33,880 nt of DNA. Source: Rhizaria sp. SCN 62-66 (lineage: Eukaryota). Positions within the stretch are counted from its first letter, which is position 1. The number at the start of each line of letters is the position of its first letter. Made by a program: the position numbers and the translations under genes. Shown here one piece after another: positions 8,301-29,118 of the stretch. The DNA is taken from the NCBI GenBank assembly GCA_001724265.1, contig MEDY01000102.1:62001-95880 (forward strand), written 5' to 3'. Below the pieces are notes generated by a model. That model was given only the letters and a program-made list of their open reading frames with translations. It had not been told where the DNA came from and ran no database searches.

Positions 8301-10840
8301 CTGCGCTGCTCCAGTGGCTGCGCGCGACGCTGCTCGACGCGCGCGCGCAAGGGCTGGCTGTGATGCTCGTCGCCCACCAGCCGCTGGCGACCAAGAAGGG
8401 CAAAGATGAGATGGACATCGACTCGTTCCACTTTGCGCATCTCAAGGTCACGCTCGCCGAGTTCGCCGACGTCATCCGGTCCGCGCTGTTTGGACACCGC
8501 AACCTCGCGGGACTGCAGAACATTCTCGGTCCGCTGGGCGAGCCGTTGATCCCGTCCATCACGGTCCCCGGCGTGTCGCCGCGCGGCAACAACCAGCCCG
8601 TGTTCCACGAGGTGTTTCTGGACCCCGCTTCGTTCCACATCCTCGAGTTCGAGCAGTGGGTGTTCGACCTCATCTCCGAGAACACTATCGCCTCGCGCCT
8701 TGCCGTTGAGACGGAGCTGGCGTCCGCGGACGTCGCGCTCGTCAGCGCGCAGCGCTCGCTCGCTGAGCTCTCCCACAGCAACAGCAACGGCAACGGCAGC
8801 GGTAGCGGTAGGAACAGGGGCGGTGACCGGAGCAGCGCGGAGCTCGCGGCGGGGCTGCTCGAGGCCGACGCCGCCGCGGACGCCGCGCACGTCGGCCACG
8901 ACCACAGCGGCGGCGCCACCGACAGCCACGGCCACGGCCGCGGCGAGGACAGCGACGACGCCACGAGTACCGCGGATACCGCGGGTACCGCGGGTATTGC
9001 GGGGGTACGCAAGGGCAAGTCCCGCCGTGAGGTGGGCTCGGGCGCCGTGCTGCGGTCCTTCATGAAGGACGGGCCGGGCTCCGCCAACTCCCCCGTCTCG
9101 GCCTCCGCGCTCGCCGCCGCCGCGCTCCGCACCAAGCCTAGAAGCTCCGTCTCTATCTCCGGCTCTAGCTCTGGCGCTGGCACTGGCTCTGGCGCGGGCG
9201 TTGTCGTGGCTGCGGAAAGTGAGCCCGCGCACGTGCACGCCGCGCGCGTCGCCCTACACCACCACAAACAGCAGCAGCAGCAACAGCATCAGCAGGCGCT
9301 GGCGAAAAAGCGTGTCGCTGCCACGATGACCGCCCTCGAGACCGCCGCCACGACTGACTCTGCTCAGAGCGCCGCTGTCGCCGCTGGCGTGAACGCGGCC
9401 GCGACCGCGTCTACGACGGTGGCCACGACTAGCGGCGCGCTGGGCCGGCTGCTCACCGCGCCGAGCGATGAGCCCGAGGTGGTGCGGCTGCAACGCGCTC
9501 TCAAGGCCAAGATCGCCGCCGTGCACCGCAAGATGCAGGCCGACGCCGCCGCAGCCGCTGCCGATGCAGATGCCAAGAAGCAGGCCGGGCTTGCCGCTGT
9601 CCGCTCAAAGCTGCAGCAGCAGGCCGCCGCCGCTGAGGCCGCCGCCGCCGCCGCGGACGCCGCCGTCAAGGACGCCGCGGCTGAGGTCACGGTCGCCAAG
9701 CAGCAGGCGCAGACCGCCGCGGCGGCGCGTGCTGTGACGGAGGTTGCCGCCGCTGCCGACGCCGATGTGGGCAAGCTCGACGCCAAGGCGCGCAAGGTGG
9801 CGGACAGGACCGCCACCAAGGCTGCGAAGGTCAGCGACAAGGCCGGCGCAAACTCCGCTGCTCCGGCGGCGGCGGCAACGGTGACCGCTCTCGAGTCACT
9901 CGGCTCTGACGCTGGCGTTGACTTGGACGCTGACGCGGACTCCGTGGCTGCGGTGGCCGACGGGCTGCGCGACAGCGTGCATGAGAGCGTCGACGCGTGG
10001 GTGCTGACGCTATCGCCGGCCGCCGAGGCTGCGCTGCGCCCCAAGGTGGAACAGTTCCTCGCTGCGGTTGATGCCGCGGCCGCGCAGCGCAAGGCAAACG
10101 CGCAGGCTCACAGTCAGAGTCAGGCTGATCCGAGCGCGCACCCTGCGTACAAGGGCAAGGCTGTTAAGGCTGCTAAGGCTGCTAAGTCTGGTATCACTGG
10201 CGCCGTTCCTGCCGTTACGACTGATACCGCAACCCCCCTGCTTGCGCCTGTGTACGTTGCCACCCTCGTCGCCGCCGAAAAGGTCCCCGTCGCCATCCCC
10301 ATGTCTGCTGCCTCCTCTGCCCCCGCTGCGAAGCCTTCTAGCGGGAGCAAGCCCTCCGCCAGCGGCGACTCCACAGCCAACAACAACAGCAGCAGCAGCA
10401 GCAGCGCCGCCTCTCCCAGCGGTTCGACTGACGCTTTGACTGGCGCGAGCATCGACAAGACCGCGGCCGAGCGCCTCGCCGCCGAGGCCGCCGCCGCCGC
10501 CGCGGCCGCGTCGCTGGGCGCCGACGAGCTCTTCAGCAGTGGCTCGGAACACGAGTACCTGGGCCGCTGGGGCCAACATCCGCAGGACCTCTACTCGTGG
10601 CGCGCCATCTCGGGCGCCAAGAACTTCACCGCCGCGACGCTGGCGCACTTCCAGGACAACGCGCCGCGCATCTCGCGCGACTTCTTTGCCGTGCAGGTGT
10701 GGACGCAGGGCGGGTTTATCGGGTTGGAGACGCCCGAGAACTTCCGGTGCAAGGCCCGGTACGATGAGGAGGATGCAATGATGCGCTGTCTCTTCCCGGA
10801 GCAGGACCCGCGCTGCTTCGATCCCTCCTGGATCAAGTAA
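5360..10840 (+). CDS. Calcineurin-like metallophosphoesterase of the endopolyphosphatase Ppn1 / acid sphingomyelinase-like group, membrane anchored, 1826 aa, intronless
   Basis: Motifs FFHFSDSHVD, FGRYKCNPP, DFIVITGDLAPH, GNND, VAHQP, GHRN and PGVSP…NNQP lie at ~7590-8690. Hydrophobic N-terminal segments lie at ~5680-5900; TAA stop. Confidence 0.85.
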   Translation: MADYVDADLAELSAFATHSGRAAAAVAAAGGRGSAAASFSRRDADMLHAFASYQAADAADATDADSARLLRPSRVASAGSINGDGDRNSARSYDNTASSQQQPPRPGFSGIAAAAAAFAVVAAAAARTLLAAALAGVALVLAAVAAFPKRAAAIAAGSLLLVTLLVAFSGSGAALGAGAGAGAGVATVAAPAATAVSWPPGVAVAIMAETDTETDAATKTQTVSSKATGKNANTAPTTPVHHRLIEADIDADAELEALLTQESSRAARAASRLTLAEGGAGQEKSQKQQDQQYQQDTDSDADSDDADSSADAESEIEIEEADAASAALLAEMEGETLPSGGSTSLAQTVFAESSSSSKSSKTSDSKSKSKSDNKDNKDSKDSKTAKSDSAKTVSKVAGKTMSKREAAAAKAKAAAAKAKAAAALAKKKAHYAPTATRKKVLASQLNPFHTVHTHSHSATTSSSSAQTGAQLQSQAGGGKAAAAALSRETGSALAAAVAAAGQSLKATGALTDVASVFPPSSTLANANANSDASAAAAAAAPSAPVPAALKLNPHPHSPAAAAAAAAAAAAAAANGNSNGPAEAGADGVTPNSSGDVAGLARGTARSALAPTAEAVNAAYATRGDAPRVSVGFTAAVAADADSGAASRAAHAPRNVSGGSGGGSRDGKDSVKNAKDAGNSNKDSGASSADVAAAAAAAAAAATRAAAANVTAAADALRERGGFYAQGASPHFGHLHPLSAELKTAVRFFHFSDSHVDPFFTPSQSMQPGVCHSCKLSSAVFGPDAYCPLAIPDGESVRDVSAGYAFGRYKCNPPPRLMRSLLTHLSRHNADPDFIVITGDLAPHGFPDDQYPLDADTQLTDLCPSKFLVMQRHIRELRRFFPRTQFAFSMGNNDHLPKNVFWAPYMAKLGDMFLDEGFISPQQHADFIRTGSYYLDPRPGLRIACPDFSLFIEGGEASFVPEDQWAHLTGVEQEDARFPVRAALLQWLRATLLDARAQGLAVMLVAHQPLATKKGKDEMDIDSFHFAHLKVTLAEFADVIRSALFGHRNLAGLQNILGPLGEPLIPSITVPGVSPRGNNQPVFHEVFLDPASFHILEFEQWVFDLISENTIASRLAVETELASADVALVSAQRSLAELSHSNSNGNGSGSGRNRGGDRSSAELAAGLLEADAAADAAHVGHDHSGGATDSHGHGRGEDSDDATSTADTAGTAGIAGVRKGKSRREVGSGAVLRSFMKDGPGSANSPVSASALAAAALRTKPRSSVSISGSSSGAGTGSGAGVVVAAESEPAHVHAARVALHHHKQQQQQQHQQALAKKRVAATMTALETAATTDSAQSAAVAAGVNAAATASTTVATTSGALGRLLTAPSDEPEVVRLQRALKAKIAAVHRKMQADAAAAAADADAKKQAGLAAVRSKLQQQAAAAEAAAAAADAAVKDAAAEVTVAKQQAQTAAAARAVTEVAAAADADVGKLDAKARKVADRTATKAAKVSDKAGANSAAPAAAATVTALESLGSDAGVDLDADADSVAAVADGLRDSVHESVDAWVLTLSPAAEAALRPKVEQFLAAVDAAAAQRKANAQAHSQSQADPSAHPAYKGKAVKAAKAAKSGITGAVPAVTTDTATPLLAPVYVATLVAAEKVPVAIPMSAASSAPAAKPSSGSKPSASGDSTANNNSSSSSSAASPSGSTDALTGASIDKTAAERLAAEAAAAAAAASLGADELFSSGSEHEYLGRWGQHPQDLYSWRAISGAKNFTAATLAHFQDNAPRISRDFFAVQVWTQGGFIGLETPENFRCKARYDEEDAMMRCLFPEQDPRCFDPSWIK
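7033..7078 (+). repeat. (GCC/GCT)n tract encoding poly-Ala
   Basis: Near-perfect trinucleotide run inside the phosphoesterase CDS. Confidence 0.9.
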
Positions 10841-11393: not shown

Positions 11394-14300
11394 ATGAGCG
11401 ACAACTACGAGCGGTACGTAACCTGCCACCAAACTCGAAATTTGTCTATGTGATCTACTTGTTATTCTTTGGGGCAACTTATATCTCGCTTGTTCTACGC
11501 TCACAAGGCCGTTTTTCGATTGACCTAACACATTGTTTGTTTGTCGATTCATTACAGCCAAGGGCGCCGCAGCTCCTGGGTCCGTGATGCGCGCAGCCCC
11601 GACAACCCTTTTGCGGTCATGGGCGCCGCTAACGCACGCCGCGCCTCCGCCACCGCTGGCTCTGCCGCAGCTGCGTCCCCCGCGCGCGCACCGCGTGCCA
11701 GCGCTGGTGGCATCAACGTCTCCGACAACTTCGCACGCATGCTCGACGCTGCCGCCGCGTCCCCTGCGCGCGCCCCGGCCCCCGCTGCTGGGGCTGCCGC
11801 GCGCCGCCAGAGCGGTGGGCTGTTTTACTCGCAGCCTGATCCCGAAATGCGCCTTGCGCCCGGGCCCGCGGCTTTCGTTTCCAACGCCAACGCCAACAAT
11901 AACAACGCCAACGTCAACGTCAACGCTGCCCCCGTCGCCGCGCCTGCCGCCGCGGGCGCTGGCAGCAACGGCGACGGCGCCCCGCTGAGCGCGCACGTGT
12001 TGCCCTTTCTGCGCACTGTTTGCTTTCTCGACGCCGCCGCGCCAGGCGACAGCAACAGCAACAACTCCGGCATTCCCAGCTTCAGGCGGTTGTCCGTTAC
12101 GACGATTCCCCCGCAGCAGCCGCCTGGCCCGGCCGGCTTAGGCTCCCCGCTACCGCCGCCGCGCCGCCCCGCGCCGCCGCTGCCCGCCGCGGCTCTCTAC
12201 CCCGGCTGGCTCGTGTGGAGCGCGCGCGCCGCTTTGACAGCGCTCGTTGCAGTCGCAGTGACCAACATCGCGCCCGTGTCGTCGTCGTCCTCCTCCGGCG
12301 CACACAGCTCCTGGTTCGGCCTCCGCGACGGCACCGAGCCCGCCGACGCCGCGGGGGCCGCCGCGTGGGCCCTCGCCGCCTCCGCCGCCCCCGCACGCTG
12401 GAGCCACTCCTCCACCGGCTCTCACAGCGGCTACGGTGCCACGTCTGCGACGACCGCCGACGGCGCGCTGCCGCTGTCGTACCTCCCGCTGGCCGAGTGG
12501 GTTGCGGGCGCGCCCGCGGACGCCCCCGCGGCGACGCGCGTGCTGGCGCCGCTCGCCGAGGGCCGCCGCGCGCACAAGGCCGCCACAGGTTCCCCCACGA
12601 GTTCCGGCGCGAGTCCCGCGAGCTCCAGCGCGAGCGCGAGCGCCGGGTTCGCGGCGCTGGTCGAGGCCGCAGCGGCGCCTGTGGTCGCTGAAGCGTCGGC
12701 ACGCGCGCGCGGGGCGGCCGCGCAGGGCCCCGCGGCGCAGCGCGCGGCGTCGGTCCACGTAGTCTCCGGCTGCGCCGCCATCGGCCTGCTTGCGCCCTAC
12801 GTCTCCGTCTCCGCATCTCACAACGCACACGCGAACGCAAACGCGCACGCTAACGGCGAGGGTAATGGTGAGGAATCGTTGGCGACGCCGGCGGGCATGC
12901 TGAGCCGCGAGGCGCTGCGGCGCGCGGGCGCCGACGCGGCACTGCCTGCGCGGCTTGACTTTCCGCCCCTCAGCGCCGGCGCCGGGCTGCTGCGCCTGCT
13001 CGCCAACACCGGCGCCAGTGTCGGCGCCAGCGGGGGCGCTGAGGCGCCAACCGCTGTGGTGCAGGCCAGTCGCGCCGCCGGTGCCGCGAGTACGAGCCCG
13101 AGCGCGAGTGCGCTGACTGGCAGTGCGCTGGGTGAGTGCGACGGCTTCACTGCTACCGCTCACGGTCACAACGAGGGCGCCGTGACCGCGGCGTCGCTTG
13201 AGGTTGCCGCTGCAGCTGTGGATGAGGTGCGAGCTGAGTTCCGCCAGGCTGCTGCGGCTGCGGTCGCCGAGCAGCACCGCGCCTTGTCGTCACGTGCAGG
13301 TGCGTAATTGCAATGAGATTGCTCTATTATCAACACGTATTTTTTTTCATCCAATCAATCAAATTGTTTTCTCACGTTTTGTTTCTTATCCGCTCTGTTT
13401 TTGTTTCATCATAGCGCACGACCTCGTGCTGCAGCTGGCGCTGCCGCAGCGCGCCGCGTGCCTCTCTCTGGCCGACGCAACCATGGGTCTCTCCTCTGCG
13501 CTTGCCGCACGCGACGCCGCCTCCGCCGCGCAGAACGCCGCGGCCGCCGCGCTCGCGGAGGCCACTGGGGCCGGGTCCACCGCCACCGGTGCTGGTGCCG
13601 TCGCCGCAGCGCAGGCCTCGCTTTCCGCCGCCGAGGCCGCGCGCGCCGGCGCCGACGCCCGCGCCGCGACCGCGCAGACCGCGCTGGCGCAGGCGCGCGC
13701 CCGCAGCGCAGGCTGCGACGACCCCGCGACCTCTGCGGCCCGCGCCGCCGCCTCTGCCTCCGCCGCTGCGACTGCAGCCGAGGCCAAGGCGACGTCTGCC
13801 AGCAACGCGTCCGCCGCCGCCTCGGCCGCGGCCGCGCGCGCGCGCAAGGCGTTCCGGCGCACCGCGCAGCGCGAGGCCGCCGTGGCCGCGGAGGCCGCCG
13901 GGCTAGACGCCCTGGTCGGCGCCGCGACCGGCGGCGGCAGCGGCGGCGGCAGTGTGGACGCGATGGCCGAAGCGCGCCGCGCGCTGGACAAGTCGCTTGA
14001 CGAGGCGCACGCGCAGCTGCGGAGACTGCAGACGGCGGGCGTTGCCACTGCGGCCGCGGCCGCGCACATTGACGGTGCGGACGGCCACGACGACGACGAC
14101 GACGACGACGACGAGGACCGCAACGGCGACGCCGCCGCGTCTGCCGGCGGCGCGGGTGGCCACGAGGAGGCGCTGGGCTCGCTGGGCGAGCGTGTGCGTG
14201 CGCAGCGCATTGCGCGCGTGCAAGCGCGCATCGACGAGCTCCTCGCCACGCGCGCCGCGCTGCAACCCGCGGCGGCTGCGGTAGCGGCTGCTGCTGCGAG

Positions 14301-15107
14301 CGCGGCGTCGCCGGCGGCCAGCGCCGCGGGTGCCGAGGACGAGGCGCAGCTCGCGGCCGCGGCGGGCGCGCTGCGCGAGCGCGCTGCCGCGCTGGCCACC
14401 AGCAAGAGCCAGCTCAAGCGCCAGTGGGAGGCTGCCGCCGCGACTGCAGAGGCGGCTGCTGCGGCGGCGACGGCGGCTGCTGTTGAGCACAAGGAACAGG
14501 CGCAGCGCGCGACCGCTGCTGCCGCGGCGAGCGCGCGCGCTGAGGCCGACGCGCGCGCGTGTCGGTCTGCGGCAGATGCGGCTGAGGGCGGCGTCGTGCG
14601 CGCGGCCGCGGTTGCCGCCGAAGACGCCGCGGCCGCGGGCAAGGAAGTCGAGGCGCGCACCAGCGTGCTCGCGCGCGCGCTGCAGGCTGCGGCTGCGCGG
14701 GAGAGCGACGCACGCGCTGCGGCCGCTGCGGCGAATGACGCCGCGAAGAAGGCCGAGGAGGCGCTCGTTGTGCGCGCGCATCGTCATACTGGACTGTTGG
14801 AGACCGCGGTCGTCGGACATGTTCGGCTCACGGTCGCTGCCGTCGAGGCAAGGGTACGCAACACTGAAACACACCCAATTTCTTGATACTTATTCATAAA
14901 TTGTGAGCTATAGCATCATACTTTTTTTGAACATACTCACTCTCTGTCTTTTTGATTTGTTTTTGTGTTTGTGATCTGTAGGCACTCGATTCCGAGCTCG
15001 AGGCTGCTGCGGAAACCGCGGCGCGTCACGCTGCCGCTGCTGCCGCCGCCCGCGCGCGCGCCGTGGCCGCTCTCGGCGGCGCCGCGCCTGCATCTTGCGA
15101 CCGGTGA
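11394..15107 (+). CDS. Ala-rich protein with C-terminal coiled-coil, ~1108 aa, 4 exons: 11394-11413, 11558-13299, 13415-14853, 14982-15107
   Basis: Introns 11414-11557 (GTACGT…ACAG), 13300-13414 (GTGCGT…ATAG) and 14854-14981 (GTACGC…GTAG) all preserve frame and join track ORFs 11541-13307 and 13198-14886. The 3' end is uncertain because the TGA at 15105-15107 overlaps a GTGAGT. Confidence 0.7.
14089..14112 (+). repeat. (GAC)8 microsatellite encoding poly-Asp
   Basis: Perfect trinucleotide run inside the CDS. Confidence 0.9.
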
Positions 15108-16133
15108 GTTACTTACCGTGCATAAACGTGGCCGCACTGAGCCAGCCGTGTTGATGTCACCCGCTATTGAGTCAAGGGGGTCTGTAACATTTTCACTTGC
15201 TGATACACTTTGCCATCGGTCCTCGAAGCCGTCAGATTGGTCGACTCAGAAGAGTGACAAGTTAGTCGAACGTATTAATTGTCAGCCCTAAGTGGGCAGT
15301 GATATCTTTGTCTGTGGGCCGGTGGCATCACTATCATGAGGCCGGGTGGCTTAACTTGTGGCACCGGAGTTCTTGAGTGTGGGCCTTGCATTTTTCTAGA
15401 GGGATAACAAGTTGGCATCAAAATACATATTATCGATTCGAGTTATCGCTACAAAAGACTGAAACAAGTATTTTTATTATGATTGTATGAGAGGTACGGA
15501 TATATTAGCGCACTTCGTAACTCGTCGATTTGTGACCTCCGCGGCAGTTAGAGACCGCTACGATATAACTGTTTTTATTTTTTATTTTTTAAATCACACA
15601 TTAAAAGTTCGCTGTATTGAAAAACAATGTACGTGCGAACGTTCATTAGAAACAAAATGCGTCATATTTGCAGTAAAAGAGGCATACCAACAAATGTTGT
15701 CCAACAACAAACTGCCAGTCGCCGAAGTCATAATACCCACATAATAACCATTATATAGTCACATACACACGGGAAACACTTGCTTTACATATACACGTTT
15801 TCTATCGTTCGTAGAATCACAGTGAATACATGTCGTTTGACTCGACCCAATGATATCGCAACTCAGCCTCAGCGACGACTCTTGAGTCACATCGCTTTCG
15901 ATCCCTTGAGTTGGTGAGTCAAGCTGATCATCATCGTGTAAATAGCGCACCACCCGGCGATAAAATATATTATACAAGCACAACTGGCCCTTGTTGCAAA
16001 GTCTTTGCGTCCCCACCGTCGGCGCAATAAGAACTACTACTTGTTTGATCGGTAGCTCGGTTAGCCGAGCAATATACACCTTAGACACGATCAAGCAACA
16101 CCGGAGTCAGATCAGCGCTCATCAATCGCTCGC

Positions 16134-17900
16134 TCACTCGCCCGCGGCGGCGATCGCCGCGACCGGCGCAGGCACCGGCGCTGCAGCCGCCGTGACCGCA
16201 GGCGCGGCGCCCGCAGGCGCGAGCGGCGCGCGGAAGAGCCTGAGGTCGACGACAAGCGTGGTGATGTTGTCCTGCGAGCCCTTGGTGAAGGCGCGCGTTG
16301 TGAGCACCTTGGCCGCGGCGGCGGGCGTCGCGCATGTGCCCACGAGCGCGGCGGCCTCGGCGTTAGACAGCACGTCCCACACGCCGTCGGTGGCGACTAC
16401 AAGCGCGACGTCCGCCGGTCCGATGCGGCGGCGCATGATCTCGGGGTCGGCCGACACGTACCGCTTAAGGCGTTTATCCCCGAAGGCCCGCGTGAGCGCG
16501 AGCGCGCCCTCGACGCGCCACGTCCCGTGGAAGACGATGCGCCCGCCCAGCGCCTCGATGCGGCGCCGCTCGTCCGCGCGCCGCGGCTTGTGGTCCACCG
16601 ACAGCGCCAGCGCCGCCAGCGCGCGTCCGCCCACCGCGGCCGAGTAGTCGCTGCCGCCCTCGGCGCCGGCGCCCGCGGCCGCGAGCGCGCCCTGGAGGAA
16701 CTTGGCGCTCTGTTGTAGCGCCGCAGCGGGGGAGCCGTTGCTGGGGGCGGATCCCGCGTCAGCGTCGGGCGCGGCGGGCGCGGCGGCCGCTGCGGGGGCG
16801 GCGGCGGGCGCGCCGGTGATGGTGCAGAGCACGGCGCGTGAGTCGCCGATGTTGGCGACGTAGACGTACCCGGCCCAGATGAGCGCACACACGCACGTGC
16901 AGCCGTCGTCCCAGCCCTCGCGCGCCGCGGCCTCAAGCCACATGTCGTCGAGCGCCAGGAACGCCGCGCGCAGCGCCTCGGCGGGCGGCAGCACAGGCTC
17001 CAGCTGCAACTGCGCAGGCGCAGCAGCAGCAGCAGCAGCAGCAGTCGCGCTACCGTTGCTGCCGGTGCTGTTGCCGGTGCTGTTGCTGTTGCTGTAGCTG
17101 TTGAGACGTGAGGCCGAGGCGGGACTGGCCGCGGTGGAGCGGGCGGAGCGCGCGCGGAGCTCGCCGTCGCCGCGGCTGTCGTTGGCGGGCGAGCCGGACG
17201 TGGCGGGCAGGAGACGCAGTGCGGCGGGGTCAAGAGGCGAGAACAGAGAGCTCTCAGCGTCAGCCTCGCCGTCGCCGTCGTTGTTGCTGCCGTTGCTGTC
17301 GCTGTCGCCCTCGACGGAGACGGCGCCGGAGCTGCTATCGTCGGTCGCGAGCCGCAGCCCGCTGACAGGGCTATTACTGCCATTACTGCCGTTGCTGCTG
17401 TTGCTGGTGTTGCTGTTGCTGGGGGAGGGCGACTGCACGGCGGGCGCGGCCTGGAGCGGGTGGCCGGTCATGAGCGCGTTGATCACGAGGCGGTGCAGAT
17501 GCAGCGCGGCGAAATCAGCCGCGCGCGCGCCGCCGTGGCCGTCGAAGACCGAGTATAAAGCGCAGCGTGGGTCGCCGCCGACCGCCAGTGTGGCCTGGTA
17601 GTTGTCCTCCATGTACGGCCGGGAACCCTGGATCGAGTGCGCACCGCCGCAGGGGCCCAGAAACACCTTGCGCGGCAGCGGCTGGGTCGCTGTGGCCGGG
17701 GACAAAAGCGCAGAGACACATGCGGGAGTGGGGAGAGGTGAGGACGAGTGAACAGACAGTTAAACAAGATTCTTCCGAATCTAATGGAGGAGGGGAAACG
17801 AACCTTTTGTGCGTTGTGAGCGGCCAGAGATAAGCGCGTCAAGAAGCATGATGCCCCAGACAATAATGCTGATAATCAGCACGATTGCGAAGAGCGTCAT
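16134..17900 (-). CDS. PP2C/PPM-family Ser/Thr phosphatase with N-terminal transmembrane anchor, ~550 aa, exons 17900-17804 and 17689-16134
   Basis: Motifs GSRPYMED, VFDGHGG, ANIGDSRAV, DHKP, LALTRAFGD, ATDGVWD and GSQDNIT. An upstream exon MTLFAIVLIISIIVWGIMLLDALISGRSQRTK joins in frame via intron 17803-17690 (GTTCGT…ACAG); TGA stop. Confidence 0.9.
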
Positions 17901-18622
17901 AGCGACTTATAGCCTCCTCTAGGCCCGGAAGTCGCGGGGAGTTCGAGTGTCTCGGTTAAGCAGGGCGAACAGTAAAAGATGCCTCCTGAGCGAGGGTTCC
18001 GTGTCAACAGGCGTTAGGTGACTACAACCATACGACACAGAAAAATAATTTGTAAGAGTGATGCACATAAAAAGCGTGAGATACAATGAGAAAGATGACT
18101 AAATATGTTGTTAGGTGGACGCAATGAGCCTGCCACATCATCGGTGTGGATTGTCTTCTTCGGGCAATGACAGTGAGGCACAATATCGTTTGATAGCAAT
18201 GCCGATATATCGTGCAATATACGACTGTACATTTTATCAATATTCGGATGCCGTGTGCGCAACAGACGAAGGGCGACGTCATACAATTCACTTTTTGAAA
18301 GCGGTCTTGCAGACCCTGGCACGAGCACGCCGACGCCCACGCCACAGTCCAAATCACGAAACGCCATCTTTCACATGAAGATAACACGTCTGAGACCCAG
18401 TTTGCCAATTTAACAATATGTGCGTTGCATTTAATGTGGTGAGTTTGGTTATTTATTTCAATATGGTAGTACATGTGTGCATTTCAACTATGACGCACTT
18501 ACAAGCCTCGTTTGCACGGAGGGGGCTCGGAAACGCATTTCGCTGCCACAGGGGCGCTGAGTCATAGCTCTAGATAAAATCAACTTGTCAAATCTCTAAG
18601 TTTGTACTTGAAATGAATTGTT

Positions 18623-21600
18623 TTAAGTCTTTCTTACTTGTGAGATGATTACCTCACCCGCAGCCGCGACTGCCGCGAGGTCGACATCTGGCAACGTTAC
18701 TCCCGTGTGCGCCTCTACGGCCGCCTTAGCATCAACCCAACGCCACCCCATTTGTTCCGCCAGCCGCGCTAGTCGCCACGCATCTTCTATAGCAGCAGTG
18801 CTTACAGCTTTGTCGGCGTTTGCGGCCTCAGCACTCGCTCTCACACCCGCACCTGCGGCTGCAGCGCTGCCAGTCGCCAACGCATTCGCGGCACTGGCTA
18901 CAGAGCACCCGCGCTCCCGCAGCTTGGCGAGCGCGGCGACGACGTCCGCAACTTCACCCTCGCTAGGCGCGCGCTCCACGGCCCATGGGAGATCCCGCAA
19001 CGGCGGCCCCTCTGCGTCCCAACCGCGCAGCCACTCGTGCCGCAGCAGCTCCGTGGCCGTGGCGCGCTCTCCGCTGTCCTTGCGGAGACACTGGCGCACA
19101 AAATCGCGCATTGCCGCGTCCGGAAACGTCGCCGCACTAAGCTGCAGCGGCATAGTGTCCTCAGTTGCGGACATGAAAGCGTGCAGTCCCCAGAACTCTG
19201 TCGGCACGGGCAGCGTCCCAGTCGCCAACTTGAACAGCGACAGCCCCAGAGCCCACACGTCGGCCGCGGTCGTCGTGCGGCCCTCCAGCACGCGCTCCGG
19301 CGACAGAAACACGATGGTCCCGCCCGCAGCCTGCAGCGCGCCACCCGGCGGCAGCGCTTTGGCGAGCCCGAAGTCTCCGAGCCGCACGCGGCCGCGGTGG
19401 TCCAAAAGCACGTTTGCGGGCTTTACGTCGCGGTGCACTTGCCCGGCCGCGTGCAGCGCAGCGAGTCCGCGCGCAACGGAGCCGGCAACCCAGCGCAGCG
19501 CGCGCGGGGCCAGCGGGCCGTGCTGCCTTAGTGCGCCTTCGAGGTCGCCGCGCGACATGAGTTCGAGCACCAGCGTGACCCAGCCATCTTCGAAGAACAC
19601 ACCCCGCGCGGCGGTGATGTTTTCGCTGCGCAGTCCCAGGTACACGCCCAGCTCCGCCCGAAGCTGCGCGCGCACGGCTGGGTCGTACAACGGGAGCGCT
19701 TTTACAGCGACGAGGCGCAGGTCAGGCACCAGAAGCGCGCGCGCGACGAGCGCCGACGCGCCGCGGCCGAGCTCCCCCATCGCGATGAGATCGCGCGCAC
19801 ACACACGTGTGCCGAGCAGGGACTCGTCGCTTGACCCGTGGCCGCTATCGCCACTGCTGTTGCTTGCGGCCACTGGCGCGGGCTCGGTGGAAGGCTTGGG
19901 CTCCGTTGGCGTGACAGTAACTGTGGCGGTGTCGTTGCCGTGATGCGTTGTCACTGTCGCGTCGTTATGGGCCGCTGCTATTAAGGTTTGCGCGCACGCC
20001 GCGCTCGACGCTGCTGCTGCATGTGGAACTCCAGCTGCAGCAACACTAGCTGGTGTGAGCAGAGCGTCTGCGCCCCACGAGTCAGGCAGAGACAACGGCG
20101 CCTCGAAGCAGCCTTTTGTCTGCACAGCCGGAACTTGCGCAGCTGCAGTGTCCACACTTGCCGTGCCGCTGCTTGTGTTGTTGCTTGGCGCGTTAATGCT
20201 GGTGACAGCTGAGCTGCGAAATGCATACTGGCGAAACGCAACACATGCGCTGCAGCTGCAACCACATGTTGTGCAGCCGTGATCCGAATCTGCATTGGAA
20301 GGGGAAGTTGCAGCAAGCTCCGGCTCCGTCTCTGGTTGCGGGGAACTTCCCAGAACTACGGGTTCTGGCAGCGTGGGTGTTGGTGGCTGTGGCAATACCC
20401 CGGGCCCGGCAGCAATTGACGCGGCGCCAGACTCTGCGAAAGACGCACTTGTCTGCGCTTCTTCGGAAGTTGACGTTGCCATAACAGCTATTTGCGTCTG
20501 TGCGCGCGTGTTGTGGCCGGTTGCTGTTGGTGGGTGGCCTTCAGCAACCGGAGACATTGCGCTGACGTGCTCCTTTGCCAGCACGGACGCAGCCACCGCA
20601 GGCGCGGTGGTTGCACCGAGTCCCGGCGACGGCACGGGCGTGATTAACGTGAGCACTGACACCGGCGCAGGCAGCCGTGGCGCCTGCGGGGCCGCGGGCA
20701 GCAGCGGCGACGGCAGCGGCGTAACAAACCCACGAGGCTCGGACGCAGACGCCGGCAGCAGCAGCGGTGTCGCACCGCCTAGTCCCAGTCCGAGACCGAG
20801 CCCCAGCAAAGCTTGGTTTGACGCACTGGTTGTCGTCACGCCACCGGTGGCCCCGTTCACGCCGACTCGCAGTCCCAGTCCTGGACTTACCGCAGCTGAG
20901 CACACACCCTGCCCAACTACAGTTGCACCGGGCGCGGGCGCAGGGTCAAAGCTGTTGCCGCGCACGCGACCGCAAGAGAGCGGCGGCGGGCAGTGGCTTT
21001 GTTCTTCGGCGCCGTCGCTGCTGCCTTCGCTGCGTGGCCCACTCCGGTCGCTGCTGCCGCCGGTGCCGCTGCTGCCACCGCTGTCTCCGCGCCAGTGGCA
21101 AGCGCTCACGCTGCTGCTTGCTGCTGCATTGCTGGGGCGTGCAATACCCTGGGCAAACGCACCACTTTGATCAATCTCGCCATGTTGACTATCGCGCTGT
21201 TTGTAGTCACTGGTGTGCTTTATGTGTGAACTTGACTGTTGTGGACTTGCGCGCCCCGCGCTGTCTTGCGCTGGACTGGGACAGTCGTCCGCCAACGGCG
21301 CTAGCGCTGGCATGCGCCACGCTCTGCTTTGCGCACCAGGTTGAGCGCGCAGTAGCCGCGTATGTGATTGCGCATATACGTGCGCACTGAGACCAACGCT
21401 GGCACCACGCGCAAGCGGCACCGGGGCAGGCCCTGGGGGCGGCAGACCTGCTGCGTTTGCCGCTGCAACAGGCGCCGGTGCTGGCGTCGCTGAGGAGTGC
21501 TGCGGGTGTGCATGTGCCGAGCTTAACGCTTGCGCAAATGCCGATAGTGGCATTGCACTGCGTGTAGCATGCTGCTGCCCTCTGCGTTGTTGCGGGCCTT

Positions 21601-24600
21601 GCTGCAGTGTATGCTGCGGGTGATGCTGGTGGCTGTGCGCGCTGTATGTCGCGCTAACCGCAACACTCGGCGCAATGCTTAGGGCAACGCTTGGTGCAAC
21701 ACTCAGCGCGAGACTGGCACTAGGCGGTGCACGGTGCAGACACGCACTAAGCACGAACGACGCCAACGAGTCCACGTCTGCACGGTCGCCGCCTGCCGTG
21801 ACAGAGCCAGCGTGGCTGAAGTTCTCAAGCCGTGCAGTCCAGTCTTCGCCGCCATTGTCAACGCATGCGCCGCTGACACCGCAACCGATGTCGGATATGC
21901 ACGCAAACGCGTCAAAGGCTGCGTTTGCGTTGTTTTGAGCACAAAAATCTCCGTTAGCGTGTGTACTACCAGGAGGACCAACAGTCGCATTGACATTTGG
22001 TGGTGCAACGCTGCTGGGGATCTCGCTCACACACATGCTGAGCCCATTGTGCATGTTGCCGTTTGACCGCCCCGCTGTGGGCGCGCCTGCGACTAGGCCA
22101 CTAAGCCCAGTGCCCGCGCGCCACGCGTCCAGCGGCTCGTCACCATCAGAGAGCTCTGCCAACGGCGTGGTCGTCAAGCGGTAGCCATTGCCAACGCCGT
22201 AGCGCTCTGCTGCTCGCGTCGACGCGGGTCCGGCTGATGCCACAACAGCTGCGGCTGCGGTCCGCGCGATGATGACCGTGGGTGCAACAGCTGCGGGCAA
22301 GAGCGCAAGAGCACGCGTGTCGTCGCAGTGCAGCGGGCTCCACAGCGCGGCATCGCATATTACTGTGTCGCGCTGCTGCTGATGCGCGCTGTTTGCGTCG
22401 CTAAACACGGTGCTACTCGGATGCATTGCGGCACTGCAAAGCGCAAGTGCCGGTGCAGAGGCAGCCTCCGACGGTGGCGCTCCGCCGTCAGTGTCACCGT
22501 CTTTGTGCCACACCCCGGCGCTTCCGTCCGCGGGCGCAAGTGCATGCGCGCTGGCGCCGCTGCGGAGCGATGGCGGCGGCGAGGCCAGACTTGGCAGCGG
22601 TGTACGCGGCGTCACTAGCAGGCCTGCGCTTAGGCATCCACAGGGCAGCGCACCCGCAGCCCCAGCAGCAGGCGTGGGCGCGGACGCCGCTGAGGGTGCT
22701 GGCCCTGCAGGCGAGGGCAGTGAGCCTCCCAGTGAGCCAGATAGAGCAAGCGCAATGGCGGCGGGCGCGCGGCAGCGGCAGCGGCAGCCGTAGAGCGCAC
22801 GCGCGCCCTCGACGCCATGCCCGCCCACGGTGCCCGCCAGCGCGGCTGCTGCGGCAAGAGCGCGGCGCTGCGCTGCGGCCGCAAAGGCTGGTGAGGCAAA
22901 CGCAAAGGCTGAGTCAGACGCAGGTGACGGCGCTGGTGTACCAGTGCCATGCATCTTCACTGTGTTACCACGACCATTGCCCTGCTGTTGCGGCTGTTGA
23001 TTGCTGTGACGCGGTCTGCGAGAGCGCGCAACGTGTCCTGTGTGCGAGATTGTGATCACGGCTGCCGTGACAGGATCGCGCACCCGCAGCGTGCCAAACC
23101 GCGACACGTCAAAGCTGCTGTCAAGCGCGAACGACCGCCCCGCGCCCGCAGCAGACAGCGCGGCGGACGCGTCGCCGCTGCCGCTGCCGCCGCCCGCCGC
23201 GCGCGGCCCCGGCGCCGCCAGCATGCCGTCTCTGTCTTCCTGGCTGCAGCTGTTGCTGTTGGTGCTGTGTCCGTTGCCGGCGGCAATGCCGCGAGAAAGA
23301 GCTCCAGACATCGCGGCTACAAGCGCCGCCGCGGCCGCAGCGTCTGATGATGCGAGCGACTGCGATGACGCTACAGAGCCTAATGCTAGGTCGATTCTCA
23401 GCAGCGCGCGCGGTTGGTCCGAGTGCAACGTCAGCGGCGGTGGCGCGAGTGCCGGGGACCCAGGCTCGGCATCAGCCCTAGCGTCAGCTTCGGCGTCGAC
23501 ATCGGCTTCCGTGGTAGTGCTCGTGGTGTTGGAGCTTGCATAGCACGGCGGCGAGAGACGCAGTGTCAGTCGCGCGCCACTGTGCTGGCTGGTGCTGATC
23601 GCGTTGTTTTCCGCCTGCTCTGCGCAAGGGATGCTCGCCATGGCGACGCTCTTGTTGCTGTTGCTAGAGTCCAGCGAGTCCATTGAGCTGTTACGTGACA
23701 AGCCAGATTGCTTCTGCGACAATGCGCCTACATGCATCGCAAAGGAGAACTCGAGCTCAGTCTCTTCATCTTCACTTGCGTCACCGTTGTCAGCACCAGC
23801 TCTTCCGCTGTCAACAGGACTTAGGCCGTGCGCGTTTGCTACCGTTGCAGTTGGCGAGCCGCAGTGCTACAGCTGCTGCGCCTGTGCGCTCTGCAGCAGC
23901 CGGGCGCGCGCCAGCAGCTGCGCAGCACTCAGCACTGCGTGGTCGCAGCGCGACTGCGCCTGCGCCGGCACGTGCGATCGCGACTGCAACTGCAGCTCTG
24001 ATTGAGACTGTAGCTCTAATGGAGAGTGCGACTACGACTGAAAGGGCACCGAGTCAGAAGCGCTGTCTACGGGACTTGGCTGCCCGTGTTGGTTTGCGCT
24101 ACCGTTATCAGGAGTTTTATCGCCATCACCGTGCTTCTGTGGAAACACGAGAGGCAGACCGAGCAGCAGCGGTGCCGACATCCGTGGCGCCATCGCCAAG
24201 TCTCCCGCGGCGAACGCAGCGGCGGCCGCGTGAGTTGGCGTGCGCCGGCTTGCGCTGCCTGCATGCGCGGATGAGTTGCCCTGAGTGTTGCTGTCGCCGG
24301 TGCTTGTGCTTTGCGGCGAGACTGCGAGTGGCGACGCGGTGACCGCGCCCTCGGTCGCGGCGCTCTCTGTCGCGGCGCACTCAGTCGCTCCACCGTGAGA
24401 GCCGGGGGACGCGGACGCAAAGCCGGGCGCGTACACAGGGGAGTTACCTGGCGCAGTCGCAGTTGCCATTGACAGCGATGACGACGAGTGAGATTCCGAA
24501 ACCGCTGCTGATGATGATGATGATGACGACGATGACGACGACGATGATGGTGATCCAAGAGCAAACACGCACGCGTTAGCGGCTTCACTTACAGACGCGC

Positions 24601-24751
24601 GCGGTTGCGCGTGTAGCTTGTTTGTGCTCTCATGCGGCTTGATTTCTGCGTCATATGCCGCAGTGTCCGCTGCGGAGCGCGCGGGTTCGCCTTGGAGGGG
24701 GCTCTCGGGCACAGCCGCGGCTGCGTCGGGAGGGCGCGGGGATGTACTCAT
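18623..24751 (-). CDS. STE7/MAP2K-like protein kinase with very long low-complexity N-terminal region; uninterrupted ORF 23737-18623, extendable to ATG 24751 (or 24850) through two in-frame TAG codons
   Basis: Kinase domain at ~19800-18990: LGRGASALV, VAVKAL, LVLELMSRGDL, HRDVKPANVLL, DFG, GTIVFLSPER, ADVWALG. The kinase call is secure; the 5' extension depends on TAG being read through. Confidence 0.8.
24508..24550 (-). repeat. (TCA/TCG)n tract encoding poly-Ser in the kinase upstream frame
   Basis: GAT/GAC run on the + strand. Mixed synonymous Ser codons on the - strand are consistent with coding in the kinase frame. Confidence 0.8.
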
Positions 24752-24850
24752 TGCGCCATGCACCGCAATACGCAGCACAGGTTCGCGCGCGGGGTTAATG
24801 GTGCTGAGATCGTAAAGCAGGAGTCGTTGATTGTGGAGCAACAGATGCAT

Positions 24851-25630
24851 GCGAATGATGGTGGGTCAAGTTGGAGAGGTGAGAGGGCCAGTCGCGCAAA
24901 GCAAAATCATGATATCTAAGAGCATCAAGTTGAAGATACGTGTTTCCTCTAGTTTTGTGTGTTGTGTTGAAAAATTGCAACCTTGGAGACCTGTTTGACG
25001 TTGTGGGGTATGCATGTGTGCAGATTCCGAAGACGAGATTTTGCTGTTGATGTGACGCAGAATGAAATACAGCATTGCCACTCAAAGACGGCACGGTAGC
25101 GCACATCAACTTGTAAAGTACAAATTTTCAAATGAAACAGTAAGGTACATAACATAAACACCCGATTAACGATGATTCCACAGAAATATTGAGTGAGAAA
25201 GATTGAGGGTCTCGCTTTACTCGGTGAGCAAGCGAGCGATGGCCGACTGGGTTCGCAAAAAATCGGAGATCGCGGCTGAGTTGGGGGCATCTTTCGCGCA
25301 AGATTCTCAGTGTTGAGTATCGCAAATTTAAAGTGTACAATTTGCACTGTGAATCAATACTCACAAACAACACCCTTTGCTCTTTTGAGACTTCCTATGT
25401 CTTCTTGAACTACTTCGATCTAGCTTCTTAAGTTGACCATCCTCGCCATCTTGCTCTTGCTTTCATTTCTCACACTATCTGCTCCCTTCAATTCTTTTTG
25501 GTAGCTTGTTTAAGGGCATCTAGATCTTGCCACTCTTATAACCTGCGCATCTTTACAGTAGCCGCCCCAGACCAGTCACACCGCGCTTCCCCGCAGGCCT
25601 TCCCGGCTCTCGCCTCGCACCCGCCGCAGC
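24851..25630. promoter_or_regulatory. Divergent intergenic region (kinase / WW protein)
   Basis: AT-rich spacer between head-to-head genes. GC-rich coding-like composition on the minus strand begins at ~24800, not at 23737. Confidence 0.5.
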
Positions 25631-28600
25631 ATGTCGGAGACCGAGGTCCCTGCCACTGCCACGGCCGCCCCGGCCGCCACGGCCGCCGCAGCGACCCCGA
25701 CCGCGGCATCCACACCCGCCAGCACCACCACGTCCGCCACACCCGCCGCGGCGGCCCCGCGCGCGCAGGAGCGCCTTGGCCGCAGCGACTGGTGGATCTA
25801 CCGGCCCCCGTCCAACGGACGACCGTATTACTTCAACGCAAAGACCCAGGTCACCAGCTGGACGCGGCCCGTCGGCGACGACATTCCGCCCGCTGATGCC
25901 GCTCCGGCTACCGCTGCCCCTGCTGCTGCTGCTGCGGCGGCGGCGGCGGTCAGCACCCCGGCCTCGCAGCCCGCGACTGCGAGCTCTGCCACCACCGAGG
26001 CTGCGGCCAAGCCTGCCGCCGCTGCCGCCGCTGCCACTGCTTCCGCCGCGACCAAGACCGAGACTGCGGCTGCTGTTGCTGGTGCTCCTGCGACCGCGCC
26101 GCCGCCGCCGTCGCGCGAGGCTATTGCAGACGCCTGGCGGCAGTACGCGACCCCCGAGGGCCGGCTTTACTTCCACAACCCGCTGACGCGCGCGACGGTG
26201 TGGCAGCGCCCGCCCGAGATGGCGCCGCCGCCGCACATCATCACCGCGCGTATCCGCTTCCCCGAGGACCGCGCGCGCTTTGTCAAGGGTGTGCTCGCCG
26301 AGCTCGGCCGCCGCTCCGCCGCCGTCAACGCCGCCAAGGCCGCCAAAGCCGCCGCGACGGAGCAGGCGCGCATTGACGACATCCACAAATCGCGCGCGCG
26401 CCGCGCCTCCGCCAAGGCCGCCGTGGCCGAGCGCGCGGCCGCGACGGCCGCGGCCGCGCTGGCACGCCGCGTTGCGATCATGGGCGCGGCCGGCGACCCC
26501 GCGACGGCGGCGCAGTACGGCACCGCGCGCGACGCCGAGCTCGCCTTCGCGGCGATGCTCGAGGAGCGCGTGGGCGGCGCCGACCTGGCCTGGCCCGCCG
26601 CGCTCCTGCGCATTGCGCGCGACCCGCGGTTTGGCGCGCTGGTGACACCGCGTGCGCGCCGCGAGGCGTACTCGCGCTTCCTCGCCTCGGCCGCGGACCG
26701 CCGCGCCGCGCGCGACGCCGCGGCCGAGCGCGAACACGTGACCGCGTTGTCGGCCGCCGTCGCCGGCGAGGGCCCGCTCGCGCTGGCGCTGCCGCCCAAG
26801 CCGCGCTGGTCGGCCGAGCGCGACGCCGTGCTCGCGCTGCCCCCCGCGGCCGCGCTGCGCTCGTTGTGGGCTGCCGCCGAGGCGCGCGCGCGCCGCGGGC
26901 CCGGCGAGGCGCCCGGCGCGCGCGACTACGACGAGGCCGAAGACCGGCTGCGCGGGTTGTTTTACCGCGTCGTGGACGAACAGGACCGGCGCCGCGCGGA
27001 CGAGGAGAAGCAGCGCCGCCGCGCAGTCTTCTCCGCATTCGAGGACTTGCTGTACGAGCACTCGCTGCTCAAGCGCAAGCCCGCGGCCGTGACGTCGCCC
27101 GAGGCCGCCGCGACGCTCCACGACGAGCTGGCCGCCGCCTGCGCCGCGCAAGCCGCTGCGGGCGCGGCGGCGCAGCCCCCGCTGGTTTTCCCTGGCGCCG
27201 TGTGGCGCACTGCGCTGACGGACGCCCGGTTGACCGGCGACGCACGCTTCGCCGCCGTCGAGTCCGACCAAGAGCGACTCGCGCTATTCGACGTCGTCGC
27301 CGCCGCGCTGGCCGACGCCGAGGCCGAGGCCGCGCGCCACGCCGAGGCCGCTGACGCCGCCAAGACGGCCGCCGCTGAGGACGCCTTTGTCGCCGCGCTC
27401 GACGCGATGTCCGCCGGGGCCGCCACCGCGTTTGCCGCGCTGGCGCCCGCGGCCGTGGCGTCCGCCGCGCCTGCGTACGCGCCCGCGGCGGGTGACCCGG
27501 CGTGGTTGCGCGCGCTCTTCACCGCGCGCTACGGCGCCGTGCCGCCGTCTCTGTACCCGCTGACGCCCATCGCGCCGCCCGCGTTCGTGTTCTCGCACAC
27601 GGCCGCGGCGGCGTCCCCGGAGCTGTCGGCGCTGCGCGCGCTGCTCACGCGCCCCGTCCCGCGCTTCTCGGGAACCGAGGCGCCGCTTCTTGAGGGCGCC
27701 GCGCTGGACGCGCGCCTCGACGCGCTCGTCGACCGCTGGAGCGCGGGGGTCAAGGCGCGGCTGCAGGGCGCGCGGCGGCTCTTCGCGGGCATGCTGGCCG
27801 AGGCGGGTCCCAGCGCCGCGGTGGCGCTCGACGGCGACTTCCACGCCGACTTCGAGGCGCGCTGGGCCAGCGACCCGCGCTACAGCGCTGCCGCCACCAC
27901 CGCGACCAGCAGCGGCAGCGGCGGCGGTGCGATGACCGACGACGACCACAACAACGGTGGCAGTGCGAGCGTGCTCTCGCGCGCCGACGCGTGGCTCCTG
28001 TTCGCGACAGAGAAGGACCGCGTGCTCTTTGCCGCGCGCCGCTGCTGGCTGCGCGAGGTTGACGCGCGCGCTGACCTGGCCGACTTGCTCGTCAAGTCAA
28101 TCACGCTGGGGTATATCCGCGAGAAGCTGGCGCGGCGCGAGGCCGAGTATGGCCGCGACGCACGAAACCGCCCGCTTGACTCTGCCAGCGGTTCTACTGG
28201 TGATTCCGCCGCGAAGGAGCCCGCGGCGACGCCGTTCTCGTTCGTGATGTCTCCGCAGGAGTGCCTGCCGTACGGCGAGGCACTGGGCAAGCTCGACTGG
28301 CGCTGGCCGGATCATCTGGGCCAGCTGCGGCGCGACTTAGGCGCGCAGGCCGGCCGGTCTGAGGCCGTGCTCGACGCCGTGCTGGGCGAGGCCGGGCTCG
28401 AGGAGGGCCGCCAGAAGGTCTACTACGCGTTCTTGACCGAGATCCTGCGCCGGGTCGACGACGAGCGCGTCGCTGCGGAGAAGAATAGCAGCAGCAGCAG
28501 CAGCAGCAGCAAGAGCAAGGGCGCGTCTGATGGCGCCAGTGACAGTGCTTCTGGCAGTGGCAGTGCTGGCGGTCGCAAACGGGGCGCGCCGTCGGAGCGC

Positions 28601-28678
28601 GAGGACGGGGATGACGCGGGCGCGGACGGCGGCGAAGACGGCGATGTTGAGGCACGCCGCACTCGCAGCAGGCGGTGA
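25631..28678 (+). CDS. WW-domain protein with probable FF repeats (PRP40/TCERG1-like splicing/transcription factor), 1015 aa, intronless
   Basis: Two WW domains: WWIYRPPSNGRPYYFNAKTQVTSWTRP (~25787-25870) and WRQYATPEGRLYFHNPLTRATVWQRPP (~26132-26215). FF-like segments follow (AFAAMLEE…W…IARDPRFGAL…RREAY; GDARFAAVESDQERLALF; WASDPRY), then a basic C-terminus; TGA stop. Confidence 0.8.
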   Translation: MSETEVPATATAAPAATAAAATPTAASTPASTTTSATPAAAAPRAQERLGRSDWWIYRPPSNGRPYYFNAKTQVTSWTRPVGDDIPPADAAPATAAPAAAAAAAAAVSTPASQPATASSATTEAAAKPAAAAAAATASAATKTETAAAVAGAPATAPPPPSREAIADAWRQYATPEGRLYFHNPLTRATVWQRPPEMAPPPHIITARIRFPEDRARFVKGVLAELGRRSAAVNAAKAAKAAATEQARIDDIHKSRARRASAKAAVAERAAATAAAALARRVAIMGAAGDPATAAQYGTARDAELAFAAMLEERVGGADLAWPAALLRIARDPRFGALVTPRARREAYSRFLASAADRRAARDAAAEREHVTALSAAVAGEGPLALALPPKPRWSAERDAVLALPPAAALRSLWAAAEARARRGPGEAPGARDYDEAEDRLRGLFYRVVDEQDRRRADEEKQRRRAVFSAFEDLLYEHSLLKRKPAAVTSPEAAATLHDELAAACAAQAAAGAAAQPPLVFPGAVWRTALTDARLTGDARFAAVESDQERLALFDVVAAALADAEAEAARHAEAADAAKTAAAEDAFVAALDAMSAGAATAFAALAPAAVASAAPAYAPAAGDPAWLRALFTARYGAVPPSLYPLTPIAPPAFVFSHTAAAASPELSALRALLTRPVPRFSGTEAPLLEGAALDARLDALVDRWSAGVKARLQGARRLFAGMLAEAGPSAAVALDGDFHADFEARWASDPRYSAAATTATSSGSGGGAMTDDDHNNGGSASVLSRADAWLLFATEKDRVLFAARRCWLREVDARADLADLLVKSITLGYIREKLARREAEYGRDARNRPLDSASGSTGDSAAKEPAATPFSFVMSPQECLPYGEALGKLDWRWPDHLGQLRRDLGAQAGRSEAVLDAVLGEAGLEEGRQKVYYAFLTEILRRVDDERVAAEKNSSSSSSSSKSKGASDGASDSASGSGSAGGRKRGAPSEREDGDDAGADGGEDGDVEARRTRSRR

Positions 28679-29118
28679 GCTTTCAATGACGTTCGTAACG
28701 AGTTAAGCTTCACAGCTCTCGATGCAAACACTCGGTTTCCTTCCTATAAGCTCGTATAATGGCCATCTCTGTTCTTAAACACATATAATCTTTGTATAAT
28801 ACAATAGTTCTATCATTATTCTATTCATTCGTGTTTGTATCATTCATAGTCGTAACACGTTTATAACTTACACCAATCTCACGTTATTATCGCATCAAGT
28901 CACGAAGACATATCATGTGGTTAAGCGAGCTTTAAATTACACATGAGGACCATCAAGTACAACTATAAGCAGCGCGATGCTTTGTCATGCCTTTGATATT
29001 CAATAACAACTCACTTTCTCTCACCTCACCCAAGCTTCGAGTCACAAATCAACAGAAACACCAAAGCTCCTGATGCTCGGCAATGCAAAGCGTCCGTTAA
29101 CTCTTTGCTTTGCCACAC

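Follow-up and report, generated by a model that had tools for sequence, protein, structure and literature searches.

Two in-frame TAG codons in the N-terminal extension of a MEK-like kinase gene from an uncultured eukaryote: possible nonsense mutations in one ancestral reading frame

Does a coding frame that continues through stop codons in a eukaryotic genome betray a variant genetic code, or does it merely belong to an interrupted gene? This question is raised by a protein kinase gene in a 33,880-nucleotide stretch of DNA from Rhizaria sp. SCN 62-66 (GenBank assembly GCA_001724265.1, contig MEDY01000102.1, positions 62,001 to 95,880 of the forward strand), which was analyzed as a whole and is hereafter called the window, all coordinates being counted from its first letter. 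On the minus strand of the window, a large open reading frame (ORF) for a predicted kinase of the MAP2K (MEK) type is preceded, in the same frame, by a second ORF, with one TAG codon ending the latter and another in the spacer. The initial annotation of this locus took UAG to be a sense codon, most likely for glutamine, and listed CAG-to-TAG decay of a dispensable N-terminus among the alternatives. In our analysis, it is this alternative that ranks first: we tentatively favor the interpretation that two nonsense mutations occurred in a dispensable, disordered N-terminal extension of the kinase gene, and that TAG is an ordinary stop codon in this organism.

The region 24865..18626 (minus strand) constitutes a single open frame that is interrupted only by a TAG at 24034-24032 (TAG1) and a TAG at 23869-23867 (TAG2). 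Starting from the ATG at 24850, the frame consists of the 272 codons of the upstream ORF (24035..24850), TAG1 (24032..24034), an inter-TAG piece of 54 codons (23870..24031), TAG2 (23867..23869), a post-TAG2 piece of 43 codons (23738..23866) that leads to the first in-frame ATG, at 23737, and the kinase ORF (18623..23737), which comprises 1,704 codons and a TAA terminator followed by A. The ORF and stop scans thus agree with the initial annotation, which had placed the ORFs 24850-24032 and 23737-18623 in one frame with the TAGs as the sole interruptions, and the translation quoted there (VPFQS-stop-SHSPLE and AQQL-stop-HCGSP) is the same as ours; the size of the putative full-length kinase, previously put at about 2040 amino acids, has to be corrected to 2,075 residues, counted from ATG 24850 with both TAGs translated. 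The upstream ORF, the first part of the ancestral frame discussed below, is Ser/Ala-rich and predicted to be disordered, and the inter-TAG piece is rich in Gln, Ser, Leu and Ala, with all CAG in frame. TAG1 is embedded in the context CAG TCG TAG TCG CAC and TAG2 in CAG CTG TAG CAC TGC, the next base (position +4) being T and C, respectively; the Gln-rich surroundings that had been reported for both codons are apparent in the translation.

The depletion of stop codons, the GC content and the codon usage across the TAGs jointly indicate that both ORFs derive from a single ancestral coding frame. Between 23738 and 24865, the shared frame contains 2 stops, and the other five frames contain 6, 7, 8, 17 and 19; within the 297-nt spacer between the ORFs, the shared frame has 1 further stop, and the two remaining sense frames have 4 and 6. 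The length of an ORF alone is weak evidence here, antisense and shifted ORFs of 281-432 amino acids being common in the GC-rich DNA of the window. The GC content of the upstream ORF, the inter-TAG piece and the post-TAG2 piece is 0.630, 0.673 and 0.574, respectively; the coding DNA of the window is GC-rich (62-78%), and its intergenic DNA and introns are in the range of 0.31 to 0.49. The three pieces, at 0.57-0.67, compare with 0.44-0.46 for intergenic DNA. The GC content falls to 0.46 starting just upstream of ATG 24850, in the AT-rich, divergent intergenic region 24851..25630 (GC 0.463; 7-13 stops in every frame) that lies between the kinase gene and a gene for a WW/FF-domain protein (ATG 25631, plus strand) and is the likely promoter region. 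A codon-usage log-ratio trained on six other genes of the window (5,236 codons) is highest in the proper frame of each piece: 0.30 versus -0.23 and -0.01 for the upstream ORF, 0.23 versus -0.18 and -0.11 for the inter-TAG piece, and 0.37 versus 0.28 and -0.07 for the post-TAG2 piece, all comparable to the 0.26 of the kinase N-terminus. The earlier description of the DNA between the ORFs as GC-rich and coding-like agrees with these measures.

The two TAGs are genuine bases rather than assembly errors because they are unchanged in independent DNA assemblies. A DNA contig from a run of another study (X3) spans 21761-26377 with no differences from the window and retains both TAGs, and a DNA contig from run X4 spans 23922-24495 with TAG1 intact. 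A metagenome contig (L001) is 100% identical to the window over 21761-26291 and keeps both TAGs as well, but it has an end in common with the X3 contig, so that these two may not be independent of each other. Given this constancy, an error of assembly or base calling behind the TAGs was rejected as very unlikely. Across the 2,075-codon frame, the X4 and X8 contigs together differ from the window by 3 non-synonymous and 2 synonymous changes, too few for a test of selection, and the sole strain difference within the upstream ORF, at position 24257 (GGC to GGT), is synonymous. A metagenome scan yielded only identical pieces of the same locus (L001 and a second piece, L002) and thus no related species for comparison. 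The window itself is a eukaryote-like contig of bioreactor or wastewater metagenome origin. Near-identical sequence (15900-28800, with 0-2 differences per contig piece) turns up in sequencing runs from wastewater, activated sludge and bioreactors that belong to several studies dated 2015 to 2025, pointing to a single uncultured eukaryote that is widespread and nearly clonal.

The RNA data, compared as assembled contigs rather than raw reads, come from a polyA metatranscriptome (X8), data of this kind being publicly available for the habitat. One X8 contig covers 24049-24399, within the upstream ORF, and others cover parts of the kinase ORF; there is no X8 depth over two AT-rich intergenic stretches where the DNA runs have depth. 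These observations suggest that the upstream ORF is transcribed. The single difference between the upstream contig and the window, 24257 G>A, is the synonymous change mentioned above, and it represents a strain variant because it is common to X4 and X8, runs of the same study. The X8 pieces listed leave 23867-24048 uncovered and say nothing on splicing or base changes in that interval.

The kinase domain (19028..19777, residues 1321-1570 of the kinase ORF) is located between about 1,300 low-complexity residues and a C-terminal tail. It matches Pfam Pkinase with 164.4 bits (cut-off 31.7, E-value 4.4e-48), and the catalytic motifs VAVK, HRD and DFG are present in the translation. Among the solved structures in the PDB, the domain is closest to MEK1 chains (E-value 4e-33), with MEK2, MKK5, MKK6 and MKK7 also among the most similar, so that it appears to be MAP2K-like (STE7 group), the subfamily being assigned from the best matches only and not from a tree. 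What sets the protein apart from MAP2K is the approximately 1,300-1,690 low-complexity residues that precede the domain. A search for orthologs of the kinase found none, the best long relative being 33% identical, and a scan of genome contigs retrieved no copy of the present organism, only a Streptomyces kinase with 32% identity. Cluster look-ups attached no names to the best relatives of the kinase and of the PP2C protein. In the middle of the kinase ORF, at 20601-21800 (minus strand), the codon score of the proper frame is -0.11 versus 0.07 and -0.07 even though the frame is open; this segment is either an extreme low-complexity sequence or a differently evolving insert.

Everything before the kinase domain is Ala/Ser/Gly/Gln-rich low-complexity sequence. 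No Pfam family was detected in the upstream ORF or the N-terminus, and the N-terminus translated through the stops (617 amino acids, TAG read as Gln) had 0 relatives among 1.84 billion representative sequences, in accord with the caveat of the initial annotation that both TAGs reside in non-conserved sequence. The 272-residue ORF is found letter for letter in the ESM Atlas, where its predicted model has a mean pLDDT of 0.38 and a pTM of 0.10, and no usable structural look-alike of it was identified there.

The scenario that we tentatively favor posits one ancestral gene of about 2,075 codons that would have encoded a MEK-like kinase behind a very long disordered N-terminal region. Two nonsense codons, 55 codons apart, would then have been gained in the outermost part of that region, both becoming TAG, the commonest nonsense outcome in this CAG-rich sequence. 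Translation from ATG 24850 would now stop after 272 residues, and the kinase, if it is still made, would be produced from ATG 23737 or a later ATG, via a shorter transcript or by reinitiation; the mutational origin of the TAGs and the fate of kinase translation, including whether it persists at all, are inferences. Both TAGs affect the stretch under the weakest constraint, the orphan N-terminus, and the lack of in-frame TAG elsewhere in the window, described below, places the cause at this locus. Of the single-base substitutions that would yield a stop codon here, 48-54% yield TAG, so two TAGs are expected in 23-29% of double hits; TAG thus accounts for about half of random nonsense outcomes, so that the identity of the two codons is only weak evidence for a TAG-specific mechanism. 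The base at position +4 is a purine at 9 of the 9 gene-end stops of the window, and the T and C that follow the two TAGs are unlike these, which argues against the TAGs being evolved terminators. The downstream kinase ORF of 1,704 codons is intact and includes the catalytic motifs, as would be the case if the N-terminal extension alone can be dispensed with. The locus resembles an interrupted or N-terminally truncated gene, or a young unitary pseudogene, in that the stops are genomic and lie in a continuous, coding-like frame, the affected part is unconserved and disordered, and downstream of it an in-frame ATG opens an intact catalytic ORF. It differs from such genes in that both stops are TAG and close together, with no other lesion in 2,075 codons, and in that no AT-rich, promoter-like DNA precedes the downstream ATG.

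Several observations weigh against this scenario. AT-rich, promoter-like DNA is located upstream of 24850, and polyA RNA covers 24049-24399; the transcript thus probably starts before the 272-codon ORF, in which case ordinary scanning should block translation of the kinase. The kinase ORF nevertheless shows no decay despite the preceding 272-codon ORF, and the 272 upstream codons themselves are free of stops and frameshifts, with codon usage still good; the chance of no further upstream lesion under neutral drift long enough to gain a second stop is 0.02-0.07 as a rough estimate, judged rather than computed. Both stops are the one codon on which editing, suppression or a change of the code would act, and there are no relatives showing an ancestral CAG at either site. 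Finally, TAG is absent from the 9 gene ends that could be defined in the window (5 TAA and 4 TGA), a hint from a small sample: such an outcome is expected about 1 time in 10 under the standard code, on our assumption of roughly 20-25% TAG usage.

It is possible, if unlikely, that UAG is instead decoded at both sites, whether by site-specific readthrough or editing or as a very rare, incipient sense codon, so that production of the MEK-like kinase of 2,075 residues would require the recoding of both codons; the lack of TAG among the gene ends could then be part of the same story. The site-specific version, that is, readthrough of both UAGs by means of a suppressor or near-cognate tRNA, or their conversion to UGG by A-to-I editing, potentially as a conditional gate on kinase production, is by itself doubtful, but we retain it in view of the promoter-like DNA upstream, the blocking 272-codon ORF and the lack of further upstream decay. 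It is compatible with the frame being open and codon-like between and on both sides of the TAGs, with both stops being TAG, with the upstream ORF being within a polyA-RNA contig, and with the kinase ORF remaining intact behind 272 upstream codons. The pyrimidines at position +4, as opposed to the purines at all window terminators, are in line with programmed readthrough too; under the coding composition, they would occur by chance with a probability of 0.13. However, the known cases of programmed readthrough extend the C-terminus past one stop, whereas the present gene has two internal stops ahead of its catalytic domain, and two stops in series would be an inefficient route to a kinase. No stimulatory motif or structure was found at this locus: a complete motif of the CARYYA type is lacking after both TAGs, and the predicted fold of 23780-24080 is no more stable than those of shuffled sequences (z -0.41).

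The closest precedent for recoding is PUK1 of Fusarium graminearum, a kinase gene in which two in-frame UAGs interrupt an otherwise intact frame and are reported to be restored by editing (PMC4817773). The UAGs of PUK1 are adjacent and located inside the kinase domain, unlike the present ones, which lie in a disordered N-terminus at a distance of 55 codons. Another study gives the context of the edited A as a hairpin loop with U at position -1 (PMC11156358). At our locus, the U at -1 is supplied by UAG itself, and the fold of the surrounding region is the unexceptional one described above. In fungi, restorative editing is not known outside filamentous ascomycetes. The organism studied here does not resemble a filamentous ascomycete: its AT-rich introns of 115-192 nt and its coding DNA of 65-78% GC are unlike those of this group.

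Another improbable solution is that both TAGs are spliced out, as parts of an atypical GC-rich in-frame intron or exitron at 24049-23867 (183 nt, GT..AG, phase 0; tcg|GTGCCC...GCTGTAG|cac in the minus-strand sequence), which would leave a product of about 2,014 residues. To judge this candidate, we used five introns that were defined in the window from frame joins and composition, namely, 11414-11557, 13300-13414 and 14854-14981 on the plus strand, and 30488-30337 and 29602-29411 on the minus strand. Their donors are all GTRC (GTACGT, GTGCGT, GTACGC, GTACTT and GTACGC); their lengths are 115-192 nt, their GC content 0.31-0.40 and their T content 0.38-0.46, with a T-rich 3' tract, and the preceding exon ends in AG in 3 of the 5, the other two ending in CG and GG. 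The candidate interval opens with GTGC, 5 codons before TAG1, like the donors of these introns, and closes with the AG of TAG2; contrary to the initial annotation, then, a GTNC donor does exist in this region. The length of the interval is a multiple of 3 within the range of the real introns, and its removal would account for the closeness of the two stops. One X8 contig has its end at 24049, inside the putative donor by one base; this is a single contig from one study, a base off for a branch point and probably a coincidence, and we give it no weight.

In composition, by contrast, the interval (GC 0.66, T 0.18) is unlike all five real introns; it lacks a pyrimidine tract, its last 30 nt being purine-rich, and these features uphold the earlier statement that the spacer does not look like the introns of the window. 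In addition, the exon before it ends in CG, and its interior retains coding-like, in-frame codon usage. The pairing of GT with AG is cheap in such a setting, given that any in-frame TAG provides a phase-0 AG and any Val codon provides a GT; phase-0 GTNC is present at 20 positions of the 1,704-codon kinase ORF. The joint 24050^23866 is absent among the 15 RNA joints listed of 83, the coverage by RNA contigs being thin.

A similarly low probability attaches to the possibility that the whole gene is a young pseudogene that was killed by two nonsense mutations and has otherwise not yet decayed. This view agrees with the expectation that, under standard scanning, the 272-codon ORF prevents translation of the kinase, and with the sequence being nearly unchanged across the runs of several studies. 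The positions of the stops are less easily explained: with nonsense mutations distributed randomly over the 2,075 codons, 5% of the trials put both into the first 371, and in 5.6% the two are no more than 55 codons apart. Furthermore, there is no frameshift or additional stop in 5.1 kb, the catalytic motifs are intact, and the gene is within polyA-RNA contigs.

Reassignment of UAG to a rare or incipient sense codon of the nuclear code, most likely for Gln, which was the preferred reading of the initial annotation, now appears highly improbable, at least as far as can be judged from this one window. In its favor, the frame is coding-like through both TAGs, both are in Gln-rich context, and only TAA and TGA are seen as terminators. 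Against it, seven other reading frames in the window (those of the phosphoesterase, two-exon gene, PP2C, WW/FF protein, histidine phosphatase and ATP-synthase-d-like ORF, and the 1,704 kinase codons; 6,940 codons altogether) contain 0 in-frame TAGs, compared to 27 and 30 in the two shifted frames, so that the avoidance of TAG is as complete as that of TAA and TGA (likewise 0 each in frame). If TAGs were spread evenly, the chance that both would fall within the upstream 371 of 7,311 codons is 0.0026. The lack of in-frame TAGs elsewhere and this clustering imply that the cause is local and not a code. Reading TAG as sense lengthens no other large ORF in the window, except for two short 5' additions within AT-rich leader DNA (TAGs at 5243 and 25559). 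No tRNA gene was detected in the window, nor was any Rfam family.

The known codes in which UAG is sense and UAA a stop (UAG for Gln in Iotanema spirale, and for Leu in the rhizarian exLh) present a different picture, the codon being frequent and found at conserved sites (PMC5304391). In Iotanema spirale, 204 in-frame UAGs are reported in 126 genes, and in exLh, most of 71 orthologs have at least one in-frame UAG, many of them at hyperconserved Leu or Gln positions (PMC5304391). Thus, more than one in-frame UAG per gene, many at conserved residues, stand against none in the 6,940 other codons and two unconserved sites in the present case. We consider the variant-code interpretation disfavored.

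The suggestion that two tandem genes share a frame by chance, with TAG1 terminating a gene for a 272-residue protein and TAG2 lying in the leader of the kinase gene, is very unlikely: although the 272-residue ORF has a separate protein entry in a public catalogue and a common frame has a chance of 1 in 3, the 297-nt spacer has a GC content of 0.62 where all other gene gaps are roughly 400-1000 nt with GC of 0.39-0.49, it contains the single further stop in the shared frame and scores best there in codon usage, and TAG1 is followed by T, unlike 9 of 9 terminators.

Other features of the window deserve a brief mention. The donor signature GTRC(G/T) is unusual, and the introns are sharply unlike the coding DNA of 62-78% GC, a combination that might serve as a signature for binning contigs of this organism. 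The spliced gene at 11619-15105 (plus strand) ends at a TGA inside GGTGAGT (window positions 15093-15118) that may be a further intron donor, so that the terminator of this gene is uncertain. The sole other ATG-initiated ORF of at least 150 amino acids that ends in TAG (18022-18474, minus strand, 150 residues) is situated between the genes for the kinase and PP2C; it is probably not a gene, its GC content being 0.43 and its codon score about 0 in all frames. A search for homologs of the PP2C protein gave 5 matches, none of them informative, swamped as they were by low-complexity words. The gene at 5360-10840 (plus strand) encodes an acid-sphingomyelinase-like or calcineurin-like phosphoesterase domain (about residues 730-1130) between low-complexity arms of roughly 700 amino acids, and thus, like the kinase gene, has very long disordered extensions. 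Among named sequences, the closest to this conserved domain are from Amoebidium parasiticum (50% identity) and from a transcriptome entry of Eutreptiella (47%); the best match without a name reaches 63%.

If the two TAGs are plain nonsense codons, as we tentatively propose, the kinase locus is an ordinary interrupted gene and mainly a warning that, where the DNA is GC-rich and of low complexity, a frame staying open across stop codons gives no evidence for a new code. If, alternatively, they are recoded, the kinase would depend on the decoding of two internal UAGs, something rare beyond viruses and filamentous fungi; or else UAG could be at an early point of reassignment in this uncultured eukaryote, which is found repeatedly in samples from wastewater and bioreactors.

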